Notes: generated from the sequence alone by a model not told the origin. A stretch of 64,000 nt of DNA from a virus (IMGVR_UViG_3300032265_001591:9724-73723); one strand, 5' to 3'; positions 30,821 to 41,441 are shown, counted from the first letter of the stretch. A program made the numbers and translations.

Positions 30821-31969
30821 TTATGCAAGACTTCTATATTGACGTTTTAATTCATCTGGAGATGGTAAAGAATCTGACACAGTTGTATCAGAACCTGACA
30901 CAGTTTGTTGAGCTATTTGTGTTACAATAGTTTCACGTGTAATGTTATTTGTTACAGTTTTTACATTTGGCTTTTGTTTAGATTCGGCTATTTGCTTAAC
31001 GTTATTATTATTGATTGGTGATTCGCGTATAGGCTCAACTTTTGCTTGAGGATTTTCTATTTCTGAAGCTTTAGCAGTTTGTGTTTGCTGTTGCACTTTG
31101 AGAGCATCAGTATAAGCTTGTCTAAAGCCCTCATTGGTTTGGTTTGTTTCAATTCCACCAGTTAAAGAAGTCCATTGATTTTTTAAAGACTCTTGTATCT
31201 TGGCAAATGTGTTTGCATCAGCTGTTTCCAAATCTTCTTGCAAATTTTGACCAGTATCTTTTAAATACTCTTCTTGAGCTAAATACCATGCGGCTTTATC
31301 TTGATTTTCAGGAGAAAAATCGGTTAAATCAGGATGTTTTTTAACTAATCCTTCCCAAGTAGTCTTTGTAAATTGGTATCTTCCAGCAGCAGTACTAGGT
31401 CCATTATTAGTTCGCATCCCAATAATTCCAGGATGTTTACTAAAATCACTGAATGTGGCTGGAGCTCTTTCATAGCCTTTTTTTCTATTTGCTGCTTTAT
31501 CTTCCTCAGTTAATCCTTGTTCTGATCCCATACCTACTATAACATCATATCTTCCTTGCGATTCTTTCACAGAAATTGCATCTAATAATGATTTACCTTC
31601 AATAGTAACTTCTTTAGATATAGCTATTTGAGTTAATTCTTTGTTATCATTACGTTTTAAATCACGATTGGTGCTTGCTTCAGTATTTCCAGAAAATAAA
31701 CTACCACCAATTCCTGCAGCAGCAAGACCACCACCCAACAATAACTTACTTAATAATGAGGATTCTTCTTTTTCAACACTAGTTTTTTCTGCTATTGCTT
31801 GTGGTCTTTGCTTTCTTTCTTCAAGAATAGCTTCATATTCTTGTTCTCTTTGAATACTTTTTATATTAATAAGCTTAGTCTTAACAGAATCCAATAAATC
31901 TTTTGTAAGATATTGAAGACGACTAAGTTCTGTCTCCAGAGTGTCAATTAAACTTTGTGATATGTTCAT
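30821..31969 (-). CDS. Virion-associated lysozyme-fold protein (lambda R-like muramidase domain), tape-measure/hub-associated
   Basis: LLDAISVKES...STAAGRYQF...TW...DFSPENQDKAA...QWTSL. Confidence 0.8.
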   Translation of the reverse strand: MNISQSLIDTLETELSRLQYLTKDLLDSVKTKLINIKSIQREQEYEAILEERKQRPQAIAEKTSVEKEESSLLSKLLLGGGLAAAGIGGSLFSGNTEASTNRDLKRNDNKELTQIAISKEVTIEGKSLLDAISVKESQGRYDVIVGMGSEQGLTEEDKAANRKKGYERAPATFSDFSKHPGIIGMRTNNGPSTAAGRYQFTKTTWEGLVKKHPDLTDFSPENQDKAAWYLAQEEYLKDTGQNLQEDLETADANTFAKIQESLKNQWTSLTGGIETNQTNEGFRQAYTDALKVQQQTQTAKASEIENPQAKVEPIRESPINNNNVKQIAESKQKPNVKTVTNNITRETIVTQIAQQTVSGSDTTVSDSLPSPDELKRQYRSLA

Positions 31970-33213
31970 TAAAATTTACAATCTAAAGTTTCTGGTAATG
32001 ATCTATCACAACTTGGAACATCACTTACACTCGGTGAAGAAGTTTGTGATTGCGGTGTGGAGGGTGCAGGTTGACTAACTTGTTGTGGTGGTAAATTGAT
32101 ATTATTTACTTCAGGTTTATTGTTGTTTGAAGTTTCTGCACTTTCTTGATTTAATCTTTTACCAACATTACTGTTATCAAATAAGCTTTCAACAGCATAC
32201 TCTCCTGCAGCATATCCACCTACGCCTCCAGCAAATGAACCAACCGGACCAGCCGCAGCAGTCCCAACTAAACCACCAACTGTTCCAAGTGCAAGACCGC
32301 CTGCCATACTTGCTGCTACTCTGAATGGGCTCTCACCTTTATCTAAACGAGTATAAGCTTCAATTGGAAGTAAGAAAGGAGCAACTTTGCTTGCTGCTTT
32401 TCCTATAAATCCTAATCCTTTTGAAACTATTCCACTTCCTGGGATTTTTTGAACTGCACTGCCTACTTTTTGTACATATTTTGGTGATTGAACATTAGGC
32501 ATTGGAAGTTTTTCTAAAGTTTTTCCTGCTACAGCAGCTGTTGCGGCGCCACCTAATTTCTCTGTTGTACTTACATTTGGATTAGTGGTTGATGGCGATT
32601 CTAAAGGTTCAGTTGGTGGTATATTAGTTGAAGTCTCAGCCGGCGTCTCTGGTGAACCTGGAGGGCTTCCTGCCATATTTGTAGGCGGAGTTTGTGGTGT
32701 AGTTGATTCAGGTGGAGGAGTCTCTTCTTTTTTTCCTCCACCAAATACATTACTTAATAAACTTGCGCCGCCAACTCCTGCAGCAATAGATCCTAATAAA
32801 CCTAATCCGCCCGTAGAATCTGTTTGATTAGTGCTTGATATTTTTTCAATAGGATTAGTTGCTGATCTAGATTGTGCCGTCTTAGTTGGAAACAGAGTAT
32901 CAATTACATCTGTAATGACCGAAGAAAGATTCTCTATATTTGTATTAACTGCATCTAGCGTTGATGACATCAGCTCAAAGAAACTTGAATAGTCAGTGTT
33001 ATCTACAGCATTTGAATTCTGTTGTGGTAGCGCTATATCATCACTATTTAAAGGTTGAACTGCTTCAACAGGAACAGCAGCGGTTTGACCCTGAGATCCC
33101 TGAGCTTGTATTTGAGATAACGTTTTAGTTTCATTTACATTATCAGAAATAGCACTTCCTACTATCCCTGAATTGTATACTGATTGTTGAACTTGCTGTT
33201 GTGTTTCGTTCAT
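31969..33213 (-). CDS. Putative tape-measure/hub protein (gp29-like position)
   Basis: Gly/Ala-rich hydrophobic segments, Pro/Thr linker; position downstream of gp26/gp51. Confidence 0.55.
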   Translation of the reverse strand: MNETQQQVQQSVYNSGIVGSAISDNVNETKTLSQIQAQGSQGQTAAVPVEAVQPLNSDDIALPQQNSNAVDNTDYSSFFELMSSTLDAVNTNIENLSSVITDVIDTLFPTKTAQSRSATNPIEKISSTNQTDSTGGLGLLGSIAAGVGGASLLSNVFGGGKKEETPPPESTTPQTPPTNMAGSPPGSPETPAETSTNIPPTEPLESPSTTNPNVSTTEKLGGAATAAVAGKTLEKLPMPNVQSPKYVQKVGSAVQKIPGSGIVSKGLGFIGKAASKVAPFLLPIEAYTRLDKGESPFRVAASMAGGLALGTVGGLVGTAAAGPVGSFAGGVGGYAAGEYAVESLFDNSNVGKRLNQESAETSNNNKPEVNNINLPPQQVSQPAPSTPQSQTSSPSVSDVPSCDRSLPETLDCKF

Positions 33214-33488
33214 TGCTTAGTAGCCCAAGTAGTAAATCCCATGTAAGCACCTACTACTGACGCCATAGCTAAATAGAAAGCACTAAATACGCCATCTAAA
33301 ACTTTGATTCTTTCATTATCAATATAAGGAGTGAGTAAAATAGCAGTAAAAGAAACCATAGCGCCCATAGCCAACCACGCCATTCGACGTCTATTTTTAA
33401 ATCTAGTTTCAGCTACGCTGATTTCTTTATTACTCACTTTTCCATCCCCATCAAGATCAATCTTTTCTTCTAAGACTTCACTCGACAT
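33210..33488 (-). CDS. Small membrane protein with EF-hand-like loop
   Basis: DLDGDGKVSNKE followed by two TM helices. Confidence 0.7.
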   Translation of the reverse strand: MSSEVLEEKIDLDGDGKVSNKEISVAETRFKNRRRMAWLAMGAMVSFTAILLTPYIDNERIKVLDGVFSAFYLAMASVVGAYMGFTTWATKQ

Positions 33489-33498
33489 TTATTGCCCT

Positions 33499-33684
33499 CT
33501 ATTGATTATTGAGTCTTTCTTTTTCTTTTTGTAAAAAGTCTAATAACATATCAACATAAATGTCTCTTTCAAATGGAATCAAGTTTTCAATCTCTGATAT
33601 AGAATATTTGTGGTGCTGAGCCAAAGCGAATATTAACGTAAAGTAATTATTCAGCGTGGTATGACTCAGCGCTACATAAAAAAA
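33499..33684 (-). CDS. gp51: Baseplate hub assembly chaperone gp51 frame; no proper start, predicted -1 frameshift extension of gp26
   Basis: FFYVALSHTTLNNYFTLIFALAQHHKYSISEIENLIPFERDIYVDMLL...; opens at the T TTT TTT heptamer; missing from the ORF track. Confidence 0.8.
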   Translation of the reverse strand, partial: FFYVALSHTTLNNYFTLIFALAQHHKYSISEIENLIPFERDIYVDMLLDFLQKEKERLNNQ

Positions 33685-34367
33685 TCTTTGATTCCTTGTA
33701 TTTCTATTACTCTAGGAGTTCCATTAGAATTGACATATTCAAGCCTATGTAGTAATTTAGGCATTGTATTGAAGAAATGCTGTATCTTCTCAAAAGTAGG
33801 AACATCTAAGTTATCAATGAAATTTTTAGCTTCTTCAAATGAGTACTCATTCATCTTGAATATTTCATTATCATTATATACTTTATCAATACAATTTACA
33901 ATCATCTTATAAAATACATCATCCTGTGAAACCATTTTAATTTGATCAGGAAGATCAATCCCAGGATACTTCATTAGAATTGTATATTGATCATTGATTT
34001 TAATCTTATTCGTATGATTTAAATCATAGATAATGTCAACGTTATCTAGATCAACTTCAAAAGTATAGACCTTATCATCTTCTTTGTCTCTGTACTTGAG
34101 TTCAACTAGGTTATTGACAGACCTAGCTCTTAACTTTAAAAAGATATATTCCAAATCAAAACTGGCAAGTGATGAAATGTTTAGGTCTTCCAAGCAACAG
34201 TTGTTAATGATCTGTGTAATTGCATCTAAAAGATCACTATCATTTCCTTGTTGTGCAAGCAAAAGTATCTTTTCTTCTTTTACAAGAAATGGACGAAACT
34301 TCTTTGTCTTTTTAATAGATGGTATTTCGATATTAAAAATCGGTGTTTGAATCTTAGGTAATTGCAT
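33672..34367 (-). CDS. gp26: Baseplate hub assembly protein gp26
   Basis: LPKI..P, FRPFLVKEEKILL.A, FDLEYIFLKLRARSV, FFNTMPKL, G..DFF. Confidence 0.92.
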   Translation of the reverse strand: MQLPKIQTPIFNIEIPSIKKTKKFRPFLVKEEKILLLAQQGNDSDLLDAITQIINNCCLEDLNISSLASFDLEYIFLKLRARSVNNLVELKYRDKEDDKVYTFEVDLDNVDIIYDLNHTNKIKINDQYTILMKYPGIDLPDQIKMVSQDDVFYKMIVNCIDKVYNDNEIFKMNEYSFEEAKNFIDNLDVPTFEKIQHFFNTMPKLLHRLEYVNSNGTPRVIEIQGIKDFFM

Positions 34368-34380
34368 ATCTCACTCCAAA

Positions 34381-35361
34381 TTAAAAAATACTTCTGGAAT
34401 TACGTCCAATAATATTTACGTTATTATATGTTTGAATTATGTCGGCTATGCTATTAGGAACACCAATAGCTGAAAAGGTAGAATAAATTGAACCAAGTTT
34501 TAAAAGGCTTTGTATGAACTTTAATCCTGGAAGTTGTGCTTTAATCATGTTTGCTGTGTCAAATCTTTCTGATTTCCAGTTCAAAAACGAAAATTGAGAT
34601 ATGACTGACATTAAACTGTTTTGACTCTCTGCGGCCCAAGATAATTCTGCATCACGTAAAGCTACTGGAAAAGCTTTATATAATGTATACTTGTCAATAG
34701 TGCCACCGGCTGTATTATATGTTTCAATTACTACTTCGGTTTGAAATTCTTTCTTATAAGCAACTTCACCCGGTTCCCATAAATACGCCCCATCTACTGA
34801 TTGCTGAGGTGCGGATAAATCATGCGCATTTGAAAATGCTACAATTTTATTCATCCATGTCTCAAAGAAATTTAATACATGCCCTTGACCATCACCTATG
34901 AATCGTAAAAAGATTTCATTAAAAGCAGCACCATATGGAACTTGTTCTTGAAATCCTACACCAAATCTTTTATAATCATTTGTAGTAAAAAGACCAACGC
35001 CAGGTAATGTTGCATCGTGGCATAATAATACTAAATCTTGTTCTTTAAATCGTGAGTCACTTATAAATCTATTGCTATTCTTTATAGTTACGGTGAATAA
35101 GTTTGTCTTTTGAACATTAACCTTTGAAAGAGTTTCTTTTAATTTGCTTATTCTAAATTTGTTTGGATCTACTGGATCATATGGAGGAGGCGTTGGCGTT
35201 GCTCCTCTTTCAAATACAGGTTTTGAATAAGTTGATCTAAATTGCTCAGTGGTTATTTCGCCAGTTCCTGTTTTTGCATCTTCAAAATATAATGCACGTA
35301 ATTGATCTTCTCTTACGGCTTTTTGAGTAGTTGCATCTAAAATTTCATTACCTGTTGCCAT
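34381..35361 (-). CDS. Tail tube-fold baseplate protein (gp54-like tube initiator)
   Basis: LLC..ATLPG, PYG, FFETWMN.I, Y.LYKAFP...L.W; position between gp2 and gp26. Confidence 0.7.
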   Translation of the reverse strand: MATGNEILDATTQKAVREDQLRALYFEDAKTGTGEITTEQFRSTYSKPVFERGATPTPPPYDPVDPNKFRISKLKETLSKVNVQKTNLFTVTIKNSNRFISDSRFKEQDLVLLCHDATLPGVGLFTTNDYKRFGVGFQEQVPYGAAFNEIFLRFIGDGQGHVLNFFETWMNKIVAFSNAHDLSAPQQSVDGAYLWEPGEVAYKKEFQTEVVIETYNTAGGTIDKYTLYKAFPVALRDAELSWAAESQNSLMSVISQFSFLNWKSERFDTANMIKAQLPGLKFIQSLLKLGSIYSTFSAIGVPNSIADIIQTYNNVNIIGRNSRSIF

Positions 35362-38371: not shown

Positions 38372-39620
38372 TAACAATGAATTGAATTATGACATATTAA
38401 TAACTGCAATTAATATCATATCTTATGATGGAAAAACTAAACAGAGTATAATCTCTCAAGTCTCCAGTATTGACATTTATGAATCAATATTCAATGCGCT
38501 CGTAAGCTGCGATGTTGAAATAATTGACCAGATCAATATCATTGAAACATTTCCTTTATTGAGACAAAAAGTATATCTTGAGATGGAATACTCTACTCCT
38601 AAACTTGAAGGCAGTGTGAAAAGAAGATTTATTGTAAATGAGATTGGATTGCGTACATATGACAATCAACTTAAAACTTCTAAATATGTTTTACAGTGCT
38701 TAAGCGAAGAAGTTATTCAACATTCAAACCAAGTTGTGACAGAAGCAATTACTGGAGAAGAGATCTCTAAAGCAATTCCTCGATTCGTAAAAACATATTT
38801 AAACTCTAATAAAAAAGTATCAGTAGATAATACTAAAGGCACTCAGTCTATTCAAGTTCTAAATCTCAAACCGTTAAAAGCAATAGATTTCTTAAGAAAG
38901 AAAGCAATATCTAAATCATATGTATCCAATACTTTTCTTTTCTTTGAGAACGTACATGGGTTTCATTTTGTGACGCTTGAATGGTTAATAAGCAATATCA
39001 AAGGTCCGGCCGATGCTAAGTTTTTTCTTAAATTAGGTGATGATCCATCAGTTGCAAGATTTAGAAACATATTAGGTTATCAGGGAATAGTGCAAGATAA
39101 CGCTACAGATATTATTGCATCAGGTGGTTTACATACAGTTCATAAACGTTTAGATATTGCAACTGGTGTAGTAACTGAGTTTGTGACTAAACCAAACATT
39201 GAAGCATTCCTTAGAGGCGCTGGAGTCAATATTTCTCCTCATCTTTCTACGTTCATTACTGATAACAGCAAACAGCCTGCAATCACAGTGTTTACAGTAT
39301 GGGATTCTACTCAAGGTGAAACGTTCTCATATGAACAACCTTTAAGAGATTTTTATATTAATTTATGCACAAGTAATATAACGAGAATACACGTGTATGG
39401 TGATGCAGCATTGACATGTGGAGACACAGTTGATCTACAGTTGCCAGTAGCAAGTAGTGATGTAGAAGATATGAAAAAAGTTAACTATAGCAAATACATG
39501 TCTGGGAAATTTCTAATTTCAAAAATTAGACATATGATAAGCGTTCAAGGAAATGCTTCATTTTCATATCGTATGTCTTTAGAGTTAATACGACCAGCAT
39601 ATGGAGAAACTATACTATGA
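38364..39620 (+). CDS. Baseplate hub protein (gp27-like)
   Basis: IYESI, FLFFEN..GFHFVTLE, GD..L..GD, SGKFLISKIRH; position before gp5. Confidence 0.75.
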   Translation: MTNNNELNYDILITAINIISYDGKTKQSIISQVSSIDIYESIFNALVSCDVEIIDQINIIETFPLLRQKVYLEMEYSTPKLEGSVKRRFIVNEIGLRTYDNQLKTSKYVLQCLSEEVIQHSNQVVTEAITGEEISKAIPRFVKTYLNSNKKVSVDNTKGTQSIQVLNLKPLKAIDFLRKKAISKSYVSNTFLFFENVHGFHFVTLEWLISNIKGPADAKFFLKLGDDPSVARFRNILGYQGIVQDNATDIIASGGLHTVHKRLDIATGVVTEFVTKPNIEAFLRGAGVNISPHLSTFITDNSKQPAITVFTVWDSTQGETFSYEQPLRDFYINLCTSNITRIHVYGDAALTCGDTVDLQLPVASSDVEDMKKVNYSKYMSGKFLISKIRHMISVQGNASFSYRMSLELIRPAYGETIL

Positions 39621-40348
39621 ATAGTTTAAATGATTTAGGAGGAGACGGACTTCTTCGGTGGTTCATAGGTACAGTAGAAGACATCAATGATCCTTTAAAA
39701 TTAGGCAGAGCTAAAGTAAGAATTCCTGCATTACAAGATGGAATCTATACTGAAAACTTAATCTGGGCTCGTCCAATTAGTCCAGTGCAAAGCGCAAGCT
39801 ATTATGGGATTGGAATCTCACCTAATGGTCTTCTCAATGGATCACAAGTCTTTGGTTTCTTTTTAACAGGAACTGAAGGAAATATTCCAATGATAATTGG
39901 ATCAATTTCTAAACACAATAACAATGATCCAAATTTAAGTGATGTGAATGCTCTTGCTAGAGAAGTAAATGACATACCAAAAACACAAATTGATTATGAA
40001 AGTTCTGCTAACCCTGGCGTAACATTCAAAGAACCAAAACCAACATACGCTGCTAAGTACCCTTATAATCATGTAATGAGAACTATATCTGGGCACACTG
40101 TTGAATTTGATGATACGCCTGGTGCAAATAGAATTCACATTTATCATTCATCTGGAACATACATTGAGATTTCCGCAGATGGCAGTCAGGCTACTCATAT
40201 TAAAGGTAACAATACAAACGTTACTCTTAAAGATGAAAAAGTCTTTGTTGAAGGTAAGTCAACCATCATCGTAAAGGGAGAAGCAGAAATCTATTCAGAT
40301 ACTAAGATAACACTTCAAGCTCCTGAAGTAAGTATAAACGGAGGTTGA
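39617..40348 (+). CDS. gp5: Baseplate central spike gp5 (short; OB fold plus short beta-helix, no lysozyme)
   Basis: WFIG.VED.NDPLKLGRAKVR, YPYNHV.RT.SGH..EFDDTPG..RIH.YH.SG. Confidence 0.9.
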   Translation: MNSLNDLGGDGLLRWFIGTVEDINDPLKLGRAKVRIPALQDGIYTENLIWARPISPVQSASYYGIGISPNGLLNGSQVFGFFLTGTEGNIPMIIGSISKHNNNDPNLSDVNALAREVNDIPKTQIDYESSANPGVTFKEPKPTYAAKYPYNHVMRTISGHTVEFDDTPGANRIHIYHSSGTYIEISADGSQATHIKGNNTNVTLKDEKVFVEGKSTIIVKGEAEIYSDTKITLQAPEVSINGG

Positions 40349-40349
40349 T

Positions 40350-41441
40350 ATGGTTATCGTATGTATGAATGGACCATTTGGTGGATTTGATTCTTTATAC
40401 AATCAAATCAAAGACAGTTTAACGCATCCTCCTTTGTTTTCAAGAATTGTAGTTCCAGACATCATTGGAACCCTCCAAGAAAAGATGTTCTCGACGGTTG
40501 AAGATATTGTTGATGCTGCAGGTAATTTAGTTGAAAGAACTAGATCTTATATCAGCATCGTTAACATGGAAGTTTGTCATTTACTATCACATTTAAATGA
40601 TATGTCTTTTTTTGATCTAATCATTAAAGGCGTTAAAAAGATACTTGATTTTGTTGGGCTTAGTAATCTTTTTCGTTCATTCTTTCCAAAGATTTTAGGA
40701 TTAGGAATATCCATTTACGATATTATTGTTGGCGGAATATCTCCTAAAGAAATCTACAAAGCAATACGAGAAGCAATTGACAATGGTTTAGATGTTCTTT
40801 GGAGTTTTGTTCCAAAACCATTTTATATTGATTTAAATCTTCCTGACATTTCTTTACCTAATATTTTTCAAATGATTATGAAACAATATAAGGACATTAT
40901 TTTAAAGCCAATCATGGATTTGGTAGGTATACTTACTGACTTTTTAGATAGCATATCTTTAGGCTTATTTAGTTTTACTCTTCCTCAAGTTCCATCTATT
41001 GGTGAAATAGTCAATAAGCTTTATGAAAAAATTAAAGTGTTTGCAATTGCTAAGGCTATTGATTTAAAAGATATGGTCATGGGAGGATTTAATGAGGTAA
41101 TGTCTCTTGCTAGAAAAATGATGAATTTTGGAATGAAAATTTCTGATCTACTAAATGGATTATCTTTTGGCAGTCTTACGGGATGGCTATTTAAAGCAAT
41201 AGACAATATGTTTAATACAGTGAAAATGATGAGTGTTGAATTGCTGATGCAAGTTAATAATATGATTGATTCAATTTACAATTTTCTGTATAAGACAATA
41301 TGGGATTTTATTACAAGTTTACCCGTGATCGGTGATATAATTAAAGCTATATTTTCTCCAATATGTATTCCAATTCCAACTGTTCAAGATGCGGTAAATG
41401 AAGCAACGAGTGTGGTTGCTTCTGCTATTCCGCGGGTATAA
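40350..41441 (+). CDS. Hypothetical hydrophobic helical protein between gp5 and gp25
   Basis: RBS GGAGG; Ile/Leu/Phe-rich amphipathic repeats. Confidence 0.7.
   Translation: MVIVCMNGPFGGFDSLYNQIKDSLTHPPLFSRIVVPDIIGTLQEKMFSTVEDIVDAAGNLVERTRSYISIVNMEVCHLLSHLNDMSFFDLIIKGVKKILDFVGLSNLFRSFFPKILGLGISIYDIIVGGISPKEIYKAIREAIDNGLDVLWSFVPKPFYIDLNLPDISLPNIFQMIMKQYKDIILKPIMDLVGILTDFLDSISLGLFSFTLPQVPSIGEIVNKLYEKIKVFAIAKAIDLKDMVMGGFNEVMSLARKMMNFGMKISDLLNGLSFGSLTGWLFKAIDNMFNTVKMMSVELLMQVNNMIDSIYNFLYKTIWDFITSLPVIGDIIKAIFSPICIPIPTVQDAVNEATSVVASAIPRV

Follow-up and report, generated by a model that had tools for sequence, protein, structure and literature searches.

A conserved -1 frameshift signal predicted to join gp26 and gp51 in the tail chaperone gene of a T4-like phage

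In bacteriophage lambda a short and a long tail assembly chaperone, gpG and gpGT, are made by a -1 shift near the end of the first open reading frame (ORF), and -1 frameshifting of tail chaperone genes is conserved (Levin 1993; Xu, Hendrix & Duda 2004, summarised in PMC5009743); the same 2016 review in Nucleic Acids Research describes G-T frameshifting as conserved in long-tailed phages 'except T4'. For T4-like phages, the PRFect paper (PMC10885494) cites Vladimirov, Gautam & Davidson (Virology 2022;566:9-15, PMID 34826709) for the occurrence of a short chaperone gene together with a longer fused one, and a further paper (PMC12846349) refers to the same study when mentioning poly-T signals for -1 frameshifting in 'TAC-N genes of T4-like phages', both attributing to it the view of gp26 and gp51 as T4-like tail assembly chaperones. 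As represented in these citing papers, the principle of a gp26/gp51 frameshift appears to have been already published for T4-like phages in 2022. Here we describe the junction of gp26 and gp51 in a stretch of viral DNA of 64,000 nucleotides (IMGVR_UViG_3300032265_001591:9724-73723, hereafter the window), for which an original prediction had proposed that a lambda G/GT-like -1 frameshift fuses gp26 to gp51. Our analysis supports this proposal from sequence comparison, and we assign a probability of roughly 0.78 to the reading that the gp26 gene makes proteins of 231 and 289 residues because some ribosomes slip in tandem into the -1 frame on U_UUU_UUU with the help of a downstream stem.

Under this reading the gp26 gene would be the tail assembly chaperone gene of an uncultured T4-like phage, decoded in two ways. 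Most ribosomes would stop at the TAG codon and release the short form of 231 residues, which corresponds to gp26 of T4 and gpG of lambda. In a minority, the two tRNA-Phe would shift together at U_UUU_UUU, exchanging UUU UUU for the UUU UUU one base upstream. These ribosomes would then read 59 more codons in the -1 frame to give the 289-residue long form, the counterpart of gp51 in T4 and of gpGT in lambda. Slippage would probably be stimulated by a 9-bp stem located 7 nt downstream of the slippery heptamer, and possibly by a Shine-Dalgarno-like AAGGAA element upstream of it. By analogy with lambda G/GT, the N-terminal part may bind the tape measure and the helical extension may recruit tube or hub proteins.

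The likeness to lambda G/GT lies in the short and long products of a -1 shift at an X_XXY_YYZ site near the end of the first ORF, in a gene that lies near a tube-fold gene and a candidate tape-measure gene (Table 1) and in an N-domain model that matches chaperone folds. There are also differences: at 231 residues the window protein is about twice as long and carries an extra C-terminal domain, its slippery site is U_UUU_UUU instead of the G_GGA_AAG of lambda and is followed by a downstream stem, an ORF of 92 amino acids separates the chaperone gene from the tape-measure-like gene, and the resemblance to gpG is one of gene layout and modelled fold.

On the minus strand the gp26 ORF ends with GAT TTT TTT ATG TAG, placing the heptamer one codon before the stop. 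The predicted long product consists of gp26 residues 1-230 followed by the 59 residues read in the -1 frame. Upstream, that frame is closed by a TAG; nine sense codons separate it from the first TTT, which puts it ten codons 5' of the latter. The coordinates and sequence of the gp26 end, of the heptamer and of the 61-codon -1 frame had all been given correctly in the original prediction, as had the upstream in-frame TAG. Profile searches identified the gp26 ORF as PF12322 T4_baseplate (1.8e-52, profile positions 3-218 of 219) and as phrog_150, baseplate hub (1e-58), and residues 2-61 of the 61-residue -1 peptide as phrog_634, the baseplate hub assembly catalyst gp51 (5.7e-24). A further match of the -1 peptide, to the C-terminus of the phrog_150 profile, indicates that phrog_150 contains naturally fused members, and tblastn with the peptide gave matches in 549 phage records (E <= 1e-3). 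Taken alone, a run of seven T is not beyond chance in the window, where 35 such runs are seen against 80 +/- 12 expected from dinucleotide shuffles, i.e., they are depleted; what exceeds chance is the conservation of the run. Such a depletion would be expected if slippery homopolymers were generally avoided except at the programmed site.

Conservation was assessed in three sets of relatives: 17 IMG/VR loci obtained with the gp26 of the window, 80 more obtained with a gp26 alignment, and ten annotated phages (S-WAM1, S-ShM2, Pelagibacter phages Mosig and HTVC008M, Sinorhizobium phage phiM7, Rhizobium phage RHph_I34, Pseudomonas phage Astolliot, Vibrio phages D481 and nt-1, and Ochrobactrum phage ORM_20). 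The counts refer to the 106 loci that include the 3' end of gp26, which encode 99 distinct -1 peptides. All 106 contain an in-phase T_TTT_TTN (N being T, C, A or G) located 0-8 codons before the gp26 stop, and in every one of them the homology to gp51 starts at the heptamer and is found in the -1 frame. The conservation of heptamer and frame offset across relatives, proposed as a check together with the original prediction, is therefore without exception, and the range of families covered runs from cyanophages to vibriophages of the KVP40 type. Conservation of the -1 peptide extends from its first residue onward (FFxxxLSHxxLxNY...QHHKYS...IP[FW]ER[DE]IY), while the position of the first start codon in this frame varies among relatives from 3 to 31 codons past the heptamer, one locus having none at all.

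The nucleotides around the run appear to be constrained beyond the encoded protein. The codon preceding the T run is GAT in 60 loci, AGT in 24, AAT in 11, TCT and ACT in 5 each and GCT in 1, so that its third base is T in every locus although the six codons specify five amino acids, which points to a constraint at the nucleotide level. The second codon of the heptamer alternates between Phe and Leu (TTT, TTC, TTA, TTG) with the T run kept, and in approximately 40% of the relatives the run consists of six T only, followed by C, A or G.

The 9-bp stem starting seven nucleotides downstream of the heptamer and enclosing a further GC-GAAUA/UAUUC-GC stem, as originally predicted, was recovered as both the minimum-free-energy and the centroid fold. 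The 85 nt from the heptamer onward have a minimum free energy of -20 kcal/mol against -10.2 +/- 2.2 in shuffled sequences (z = -4.41), and none of 200 shuffles folded as well. A gapless alignment comprising 98 distinct junctions served to test its conservation. Among the sequences that share the TTTTTTT heptamer of the window (the T7 clade), at least 8 of the 9 pairs can be formed in 39 of 56, and the mean of 7.77 pairs compares with 7.07 when the 3' arms are shuffled among sequences (maximum 7.3 in 1000 shuffles) and with 2.0-3.3 in slid registers. Covariation of the stem had been put forward as a further check, and compensatory changes were indeed found within this clade: CTG>TTG together with CAG>CAA, both of them synonymous, AGT>TGT together with GCT>GCA, and CAT>TAT together with TTG>TTA. 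There is also a constraint at the codon level, as the stem arms use codons that are rare in the genes of the window, namely the Leu codon CTG (10 of 648 Leu codons, 1.5%) and the Ala codon GCG (24 of 484). When synonymous codons were resampled according to the phage's own usage, the 9/9 pairs of the window stem had a P of about 1e-4, and the T7 clade reached a mean of 4.79 pairs (maximum 5.23) against the 7.77 observed. Together, these comparisons constitute good evidence from sequence for selection on the long-range stem in the T7 clade. The inner hairpin is weakly conserved, with 55.8% of cells paired across the 98 relatives.

For clades with a UUUUUUC site no common structure could be defined in the 98-junction alignment. 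A local hairpin in a fixed register (columns 21-27 with 39-45) was tried for these TTTTTTC clades and rejected, its 3.79 of 7 pairs being barely above the 3.40 of shuffled sequences.

Upstream of the heptamer, the AAGGAA element of the window has counterparts in the relatives: over 96 distinct loci the mean anti-Shine-Dalgarno duplex energy is -4.7 kcal/mol against -0.94 kcal/mol in control windows, and values of -5 kcal/mol or lower occur in 55% of loci against 6% of control windows, with the confounder that the element overlaps conserved [E/K]-G codons. The purine motif of the relatives lies 4-17 nt upstream of the heptamer and reaches its greatest strength, with a mean of -6.15 kcal/mol, in the TTTTTTC clades.

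Such an arrangement has a counterpart in a cellular gene. The -1 frameshift of Escherichia coli dnaX takes place at A_AAA_AAG, with a Shine-Dalgarno sequence upstream and a stem-loop downstream. The window resembles this three-part layout: its heptamer is followed by a stem after approximately 7 nt, within the 5-9 nt of such signals, and is preceded at 8-13 nt by AAGGAA as a candidate third element, and it is possible by this analogy that AAGGAA acts as an upstream stimulator as in dnaX. The two systems differ in their heptamers and tRNAs, in that the window stem closes a 38-nt loop, in that the Shine-Dalgarno-like element of the window is confounded by conserved Gly codons, and in that the shifted product would be the longer one in the window but is the shorter one in dnaX.

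The comparison with T4 itself helps to explain what the long form would correspond to. Genes 26 and 51 of T4 are adjacent and divergently transcribed, which confirms the earlier statement that they are separate genes. T4 gp51 (249 amino acids) matches PF12322 over residues 1-201 (3.9e-52), phrog_150 over residues 3-248 and phrog_634 over residues 147-246 (1.2e-23), and the -1 peptide of the window aligns to its residues 224-249 (direct BLASTP, E 0.002). T4 gp26 (208 amino acids) has the same PF12322 domain (8.8e-64) without the extension. Since T4 gp51 is thus composed of a PF12322 domain and a phrog_634 extension, it can be considered an in-frame equivalent of the predicted fusion, and T4 gp26 an equivalent of the short form. 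The likeness extends to the shared domain, the gp51-type C-terminal sequence and the logic of a short and long pair, with the difference that T4 uses two separate genes and the phage described here one gene and predicted recoding for both forms.

The number of PF12322 genes is in agreement with this difference: there are two in T4 and one each in the complete genomes of Mosig, HTVC008M, S-ShM2 and phiM7, and the 73.7-kb record from which the window derives, which is 44% complete, has one match. The T4-type arrangement, with short and long forms as two genes, was found neither in this record nor in the four complete heptamer-bearing genomes. With a single PF12322 gene in heptamer-bearing phages, a gp51-type long protein can arise only by recoding. 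The sole natural in-frame fusion of gp26 and gp51 found with the 61-residue query, P0122 (an ENA contig, 287 amino acids), lacks the heptamer region (about G-x-x-D-F-F-Y-V), its two parts being directly joined.

Structural predictions were obtained for the gp26 part and the extension as two separate models. The AlphaFold model of gp26 has a predicted local distance difference test (pLDDT) score of 87.8, and when it was compared with 48,161 representative chains using VIA-align, the top matches all fell on residues 1-93. The first of them was an uncharacterised Bacillus protein (3fgx, Z 8.3), accompanied by the HK97 tail assembly chaperone (2ob9, Z 7.2, 84 aligned, rmsd, i.e. root-mean-square deviation, 4.1) and YqbN (3klu, Z 6.9), then by 5ir0 (Z 5.1), with unrelated rows beginning at Z 4.2. 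The coherence of these top matches gives moderate support to a tail-chaperone-type fold of the N-domain in this model. The 61-residue extension is predicted to form three helices (pLDDT 74.5).

The same fused product could also be obtained by transcriptional slippage, in which RNA polymerase would add an extra U on the seven-T run in some transcripts. Every relative has a homopolymer of 6-7 T, and insertion of one U would give an identical protein; we nevertheless consider this explanation unlikely, because about two in five relatives have six T only before a C, A or G, and a six-T run is short for slippage by bacterial RNA polymerase. The stem at canonical spacing, with its rare codons and compensatory changes, and possibly the Shine-Dalgarno-like element upstream are features of ribosomal stimulators which would not be expected for a polymerase. 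In addition, the poly-T signals are cited in PMC12846349 as -1 frameshift signals. An artefact, in which a homopolymer sequencing error has split one ORF or the gene has decayed into a pseudogene, has a negligible probability: although homopolymer runs are error-prone and one in-frame fusion exists in nature, that fusion (P0122) arose by loss of the heptamer region and not by a one-base change, and the -1 offset is the same in all 106 relatives. The identical seven-T junction was also present in six independent metagenome assemblies at 94-99% identity, and the best 120 of 7,900 gp26 homologues are all 231-236 amino acids long, so that independent assemblies preserve the frame break. A homopolymer error, which had been named as a possible objection to the original prediction, is thereby excluded.

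Synthesis of gp51 as a separate small protein, through initiation or termination-reinitiation near the gp26 stop (e.g., at TTG 33624 or at a non-canonical codon), would make the T run a mere consequence of gp26 ending in Asp-Phe-Phe. Database records do annotate a small separate gp51 gene, and a TTG-initiated ORF of 41 amino acids exists in the window, but the first 20 residues, conserved as FFxxxLSHxxLxNY, would be missing from its product. In line with the original prediction, by which no such start precedes the conserved region, the first ATG, GTG or TTG in the -1 frame of the window is at codon 21 (TTG 33624). Independent initiation at CTG or at this TTG had been raised as an objection, and neither CTG 33669 (-0.9 kcal/mol) nor TTG 33624 (+1.2 kcal/mol) has a Shine-Dalgarno sequence as measured by the anti-Shine-Dalgarno duplex; all 24 neighbouring ORFs start with ATG, most of them with a Shine-Dalgarno sequence (duplex -2 to -10 kcal/mol). 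The wandering of the first start codon among relatives, the T-ending codon before the run, the persistence of the run when the second heptamer codon changes between Phe and Leu, and the presence of a gp26-like domain in the functional gp51 of T4 all argue against separate synthesis, which we regard as very improbable for the window.

Several observations nevertheless weigh against ribosomal frameshifting into a tail chaperone extension or limit the certainty with which it can be asserted. In the Vibrio phages, S-ShM2 and RHph_I34 an ATG is found in the -1 frame 3-5 codons past the heptamer, and judging from sequence, coupled initiation is possible in relatives with such an early ATG. Since Phe-Phe is conserved in both reading frames, the protein sequence also fixes the phase of the T run, and phase conservation alone is no proof of ribosomal slippage. 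The long-range stem is clade-specific, with at least 8 of 9 pairs in just 2 of 38 TTTTTTC sequences, and RNAalifold found no consensus structure over all 98 junctions. As regards the fold, the VIA-align Z values of 7-8 are middling by the tool's own scale, and a Foldseek search of the PDB with the gp26 model gave no significant match, with the HK97 chaperone ranking 32nd at E 1.3. Finally, that the shift is ribosomal is something we infer, as are the ratio of the two products and the efficiency of shifting.

A side observation concerns the relatives with an early ATG. Four such loci (L025 and L027, from Vibrio phages D481 and nt-1, and L002 and L023) keep an in-phase T_TTT_TTC/G, and in the two Vibrio phages the ATG forms a TAATG overlap with the gp26 stop. 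Through coupled initiation these loci might make a free small gp51 besides the fusion.

The features of the junction and of the genes next to it are collected in Table 1.

Table 1. Predicted features at the gp26/gp51 junction and in adjoining genes (positions counted from the first nucleotide of the window; aa, amino acids)
Feature	Coordinates	Strand	Details
gp26 / TAC-N ORF, short product	34367..33672	minus	231 aa; stop TAG 33674..33672; ATG start with GGAG Shine-Dalgarno
Shine-Dalgarno-like AAGGAA	33697..33692	minus	8-13 nt upstream of heptamer; anti-Shine-Dalgarno duplex -5.4 kcal/mol
Slippery heptamer T_TTT_TTT	33684..33678	minus	zero-frame phase X_XXY_YYZ; last T of GAT, then TTT TTT
-1 frame extension, gp51-like C-terminal ('T') part	33684..33499	minus	61 codons plus stop 33501..33499
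Long-range stem, 5' arm GCUGAGUCA	33670..33662	minus	starts 7 nt after heptamer
Long-range stem, 3' arm UGGCUCAGC	33623..33615	minus	9 bp with 5' arm, closing 38-nt loop
Inner hairpin inside 38-nt loop	33655..33648 with 33632..33626	minus	GC-GAAUA with UAUUC-GC; minimum-free-energy fold
Upstream tube-fold gene, gp54-like tail tube initiator or tube protein	34381..35361	minus	326 aa; PF23849 Phage_TTP_2 1.2e-6, phrog_45 2.3e-19
ORF between chaperone and tape-measure-like gene	33210..33488	minus	92 aa; phrog_27150 1.6e-8, weak EF-hand_5
Tape-measure-like ORF, candidate gp29 equivalent	31969..33213	minus	414 aa; weak phrog_794 tape measure match, 2.7e-5

In gene content the window corresponds to a tail and baseplate module of the T4 type. 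Its minus-strand part contains a gp4-like head closure gene, a gp2-like end protector gene, the tube-fold gene, gp26 with its gp51 extension, the 92-aa and 414-aa ORFs and a lysin-like ORF of 382 amino acids, and its plus-strand part contains gp48, gp53, a tail protein gene, gp5, gp25, gp6 and an ORF of 1474 amino acids. The gene order tube, gp26, gp51 and tape measure given in the original prediction holds approximately: the relatives' counterpart of the 326-aa protein is annotated as tail tube initiator or tail tube, so that it is not clearly the major tube protein, the 92-aa ORF intervenes, and the tape-measure match of the 414-aa ORF is weak. The HTVC008M gene at the same position is annotated as a putative tail tape measure. 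A small ORF occupies the position of the 92-aa ORF in Mosig, phiM7 and HTVC008M as well; that of the window has an EF-hand-like DLDGDGKVS loop and hydrophobic segments.

The 382-aa ORF (30821-31969, minus strand) directly follows the tape-measure-like gene, with an ATGA overlap at 31969, and has PHROG matches to endolysin and metallo-endopeptidase. The gp5-like hub protein (39617-40348, plus strand) is only 243 amino acids long, suggesting that it has no lysozyme domain; taken together with the lysin-like ORF, this means that the cell-wall-degrading activity may adjoin the tape measure instead of being located in gp5. An ORF of 363 amino acids between gp5 and gp25 (40350-41441, plus strand) also has weak tape-measure PHROG matches (4e-6), so there are two tape-measure-like candidates in the window.

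In conclusion, the window holds a real, well-supported and unannotated example of a known principle, in which the combination of a U7 site and a long-range stem is the only detail that is possibly new. Within the T4-like family the clade of the window is set apart by a U7 heptamer in place of UUUUUUC and by the rare-codon long-range stem. More broadly, we tentatively suggest, at slightly less than even odds, that T4-like chaperone genes combine an invariant U_UUU_UUN site with stimulators that differ from clade to clade. In the U7 clade the stimulator would be a rare-codon 9-bp stem closing a 38-nt loop, possibly helped by the Shine-Dalgarno-like element; this stem is absent from most UUUUUUC clades. 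If this is true, and if it was left undescribed in the 2022 paper, the family would provide a natural series for stimulator turnover at a fixed slip site.

The practical consequence lies in annotation. None of the ten inspected phage records marks a frameshift, and gp51 appears in them as a tiny separate coding sequence or is absent; the long form, the functional equivalent of the essential T4 gp51, is therefore missing from these records or appears under the wrong annotation of a tiny separate 'baseplate hub assembly catalyst' gene, and about 550 further records match the extension. Because the principle appears, from the papers citing it, to be already published, the value of the present case is confirmatory and annotational, its own additions being the U7 variant and the well-supported downstream stem. 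For the family as a whole, the signal would remove the old 'except T4' exception (PMC5009743), in that T4 proper would have two paralogous genes instead of recoding and most of its relatives would keep the frameshift.

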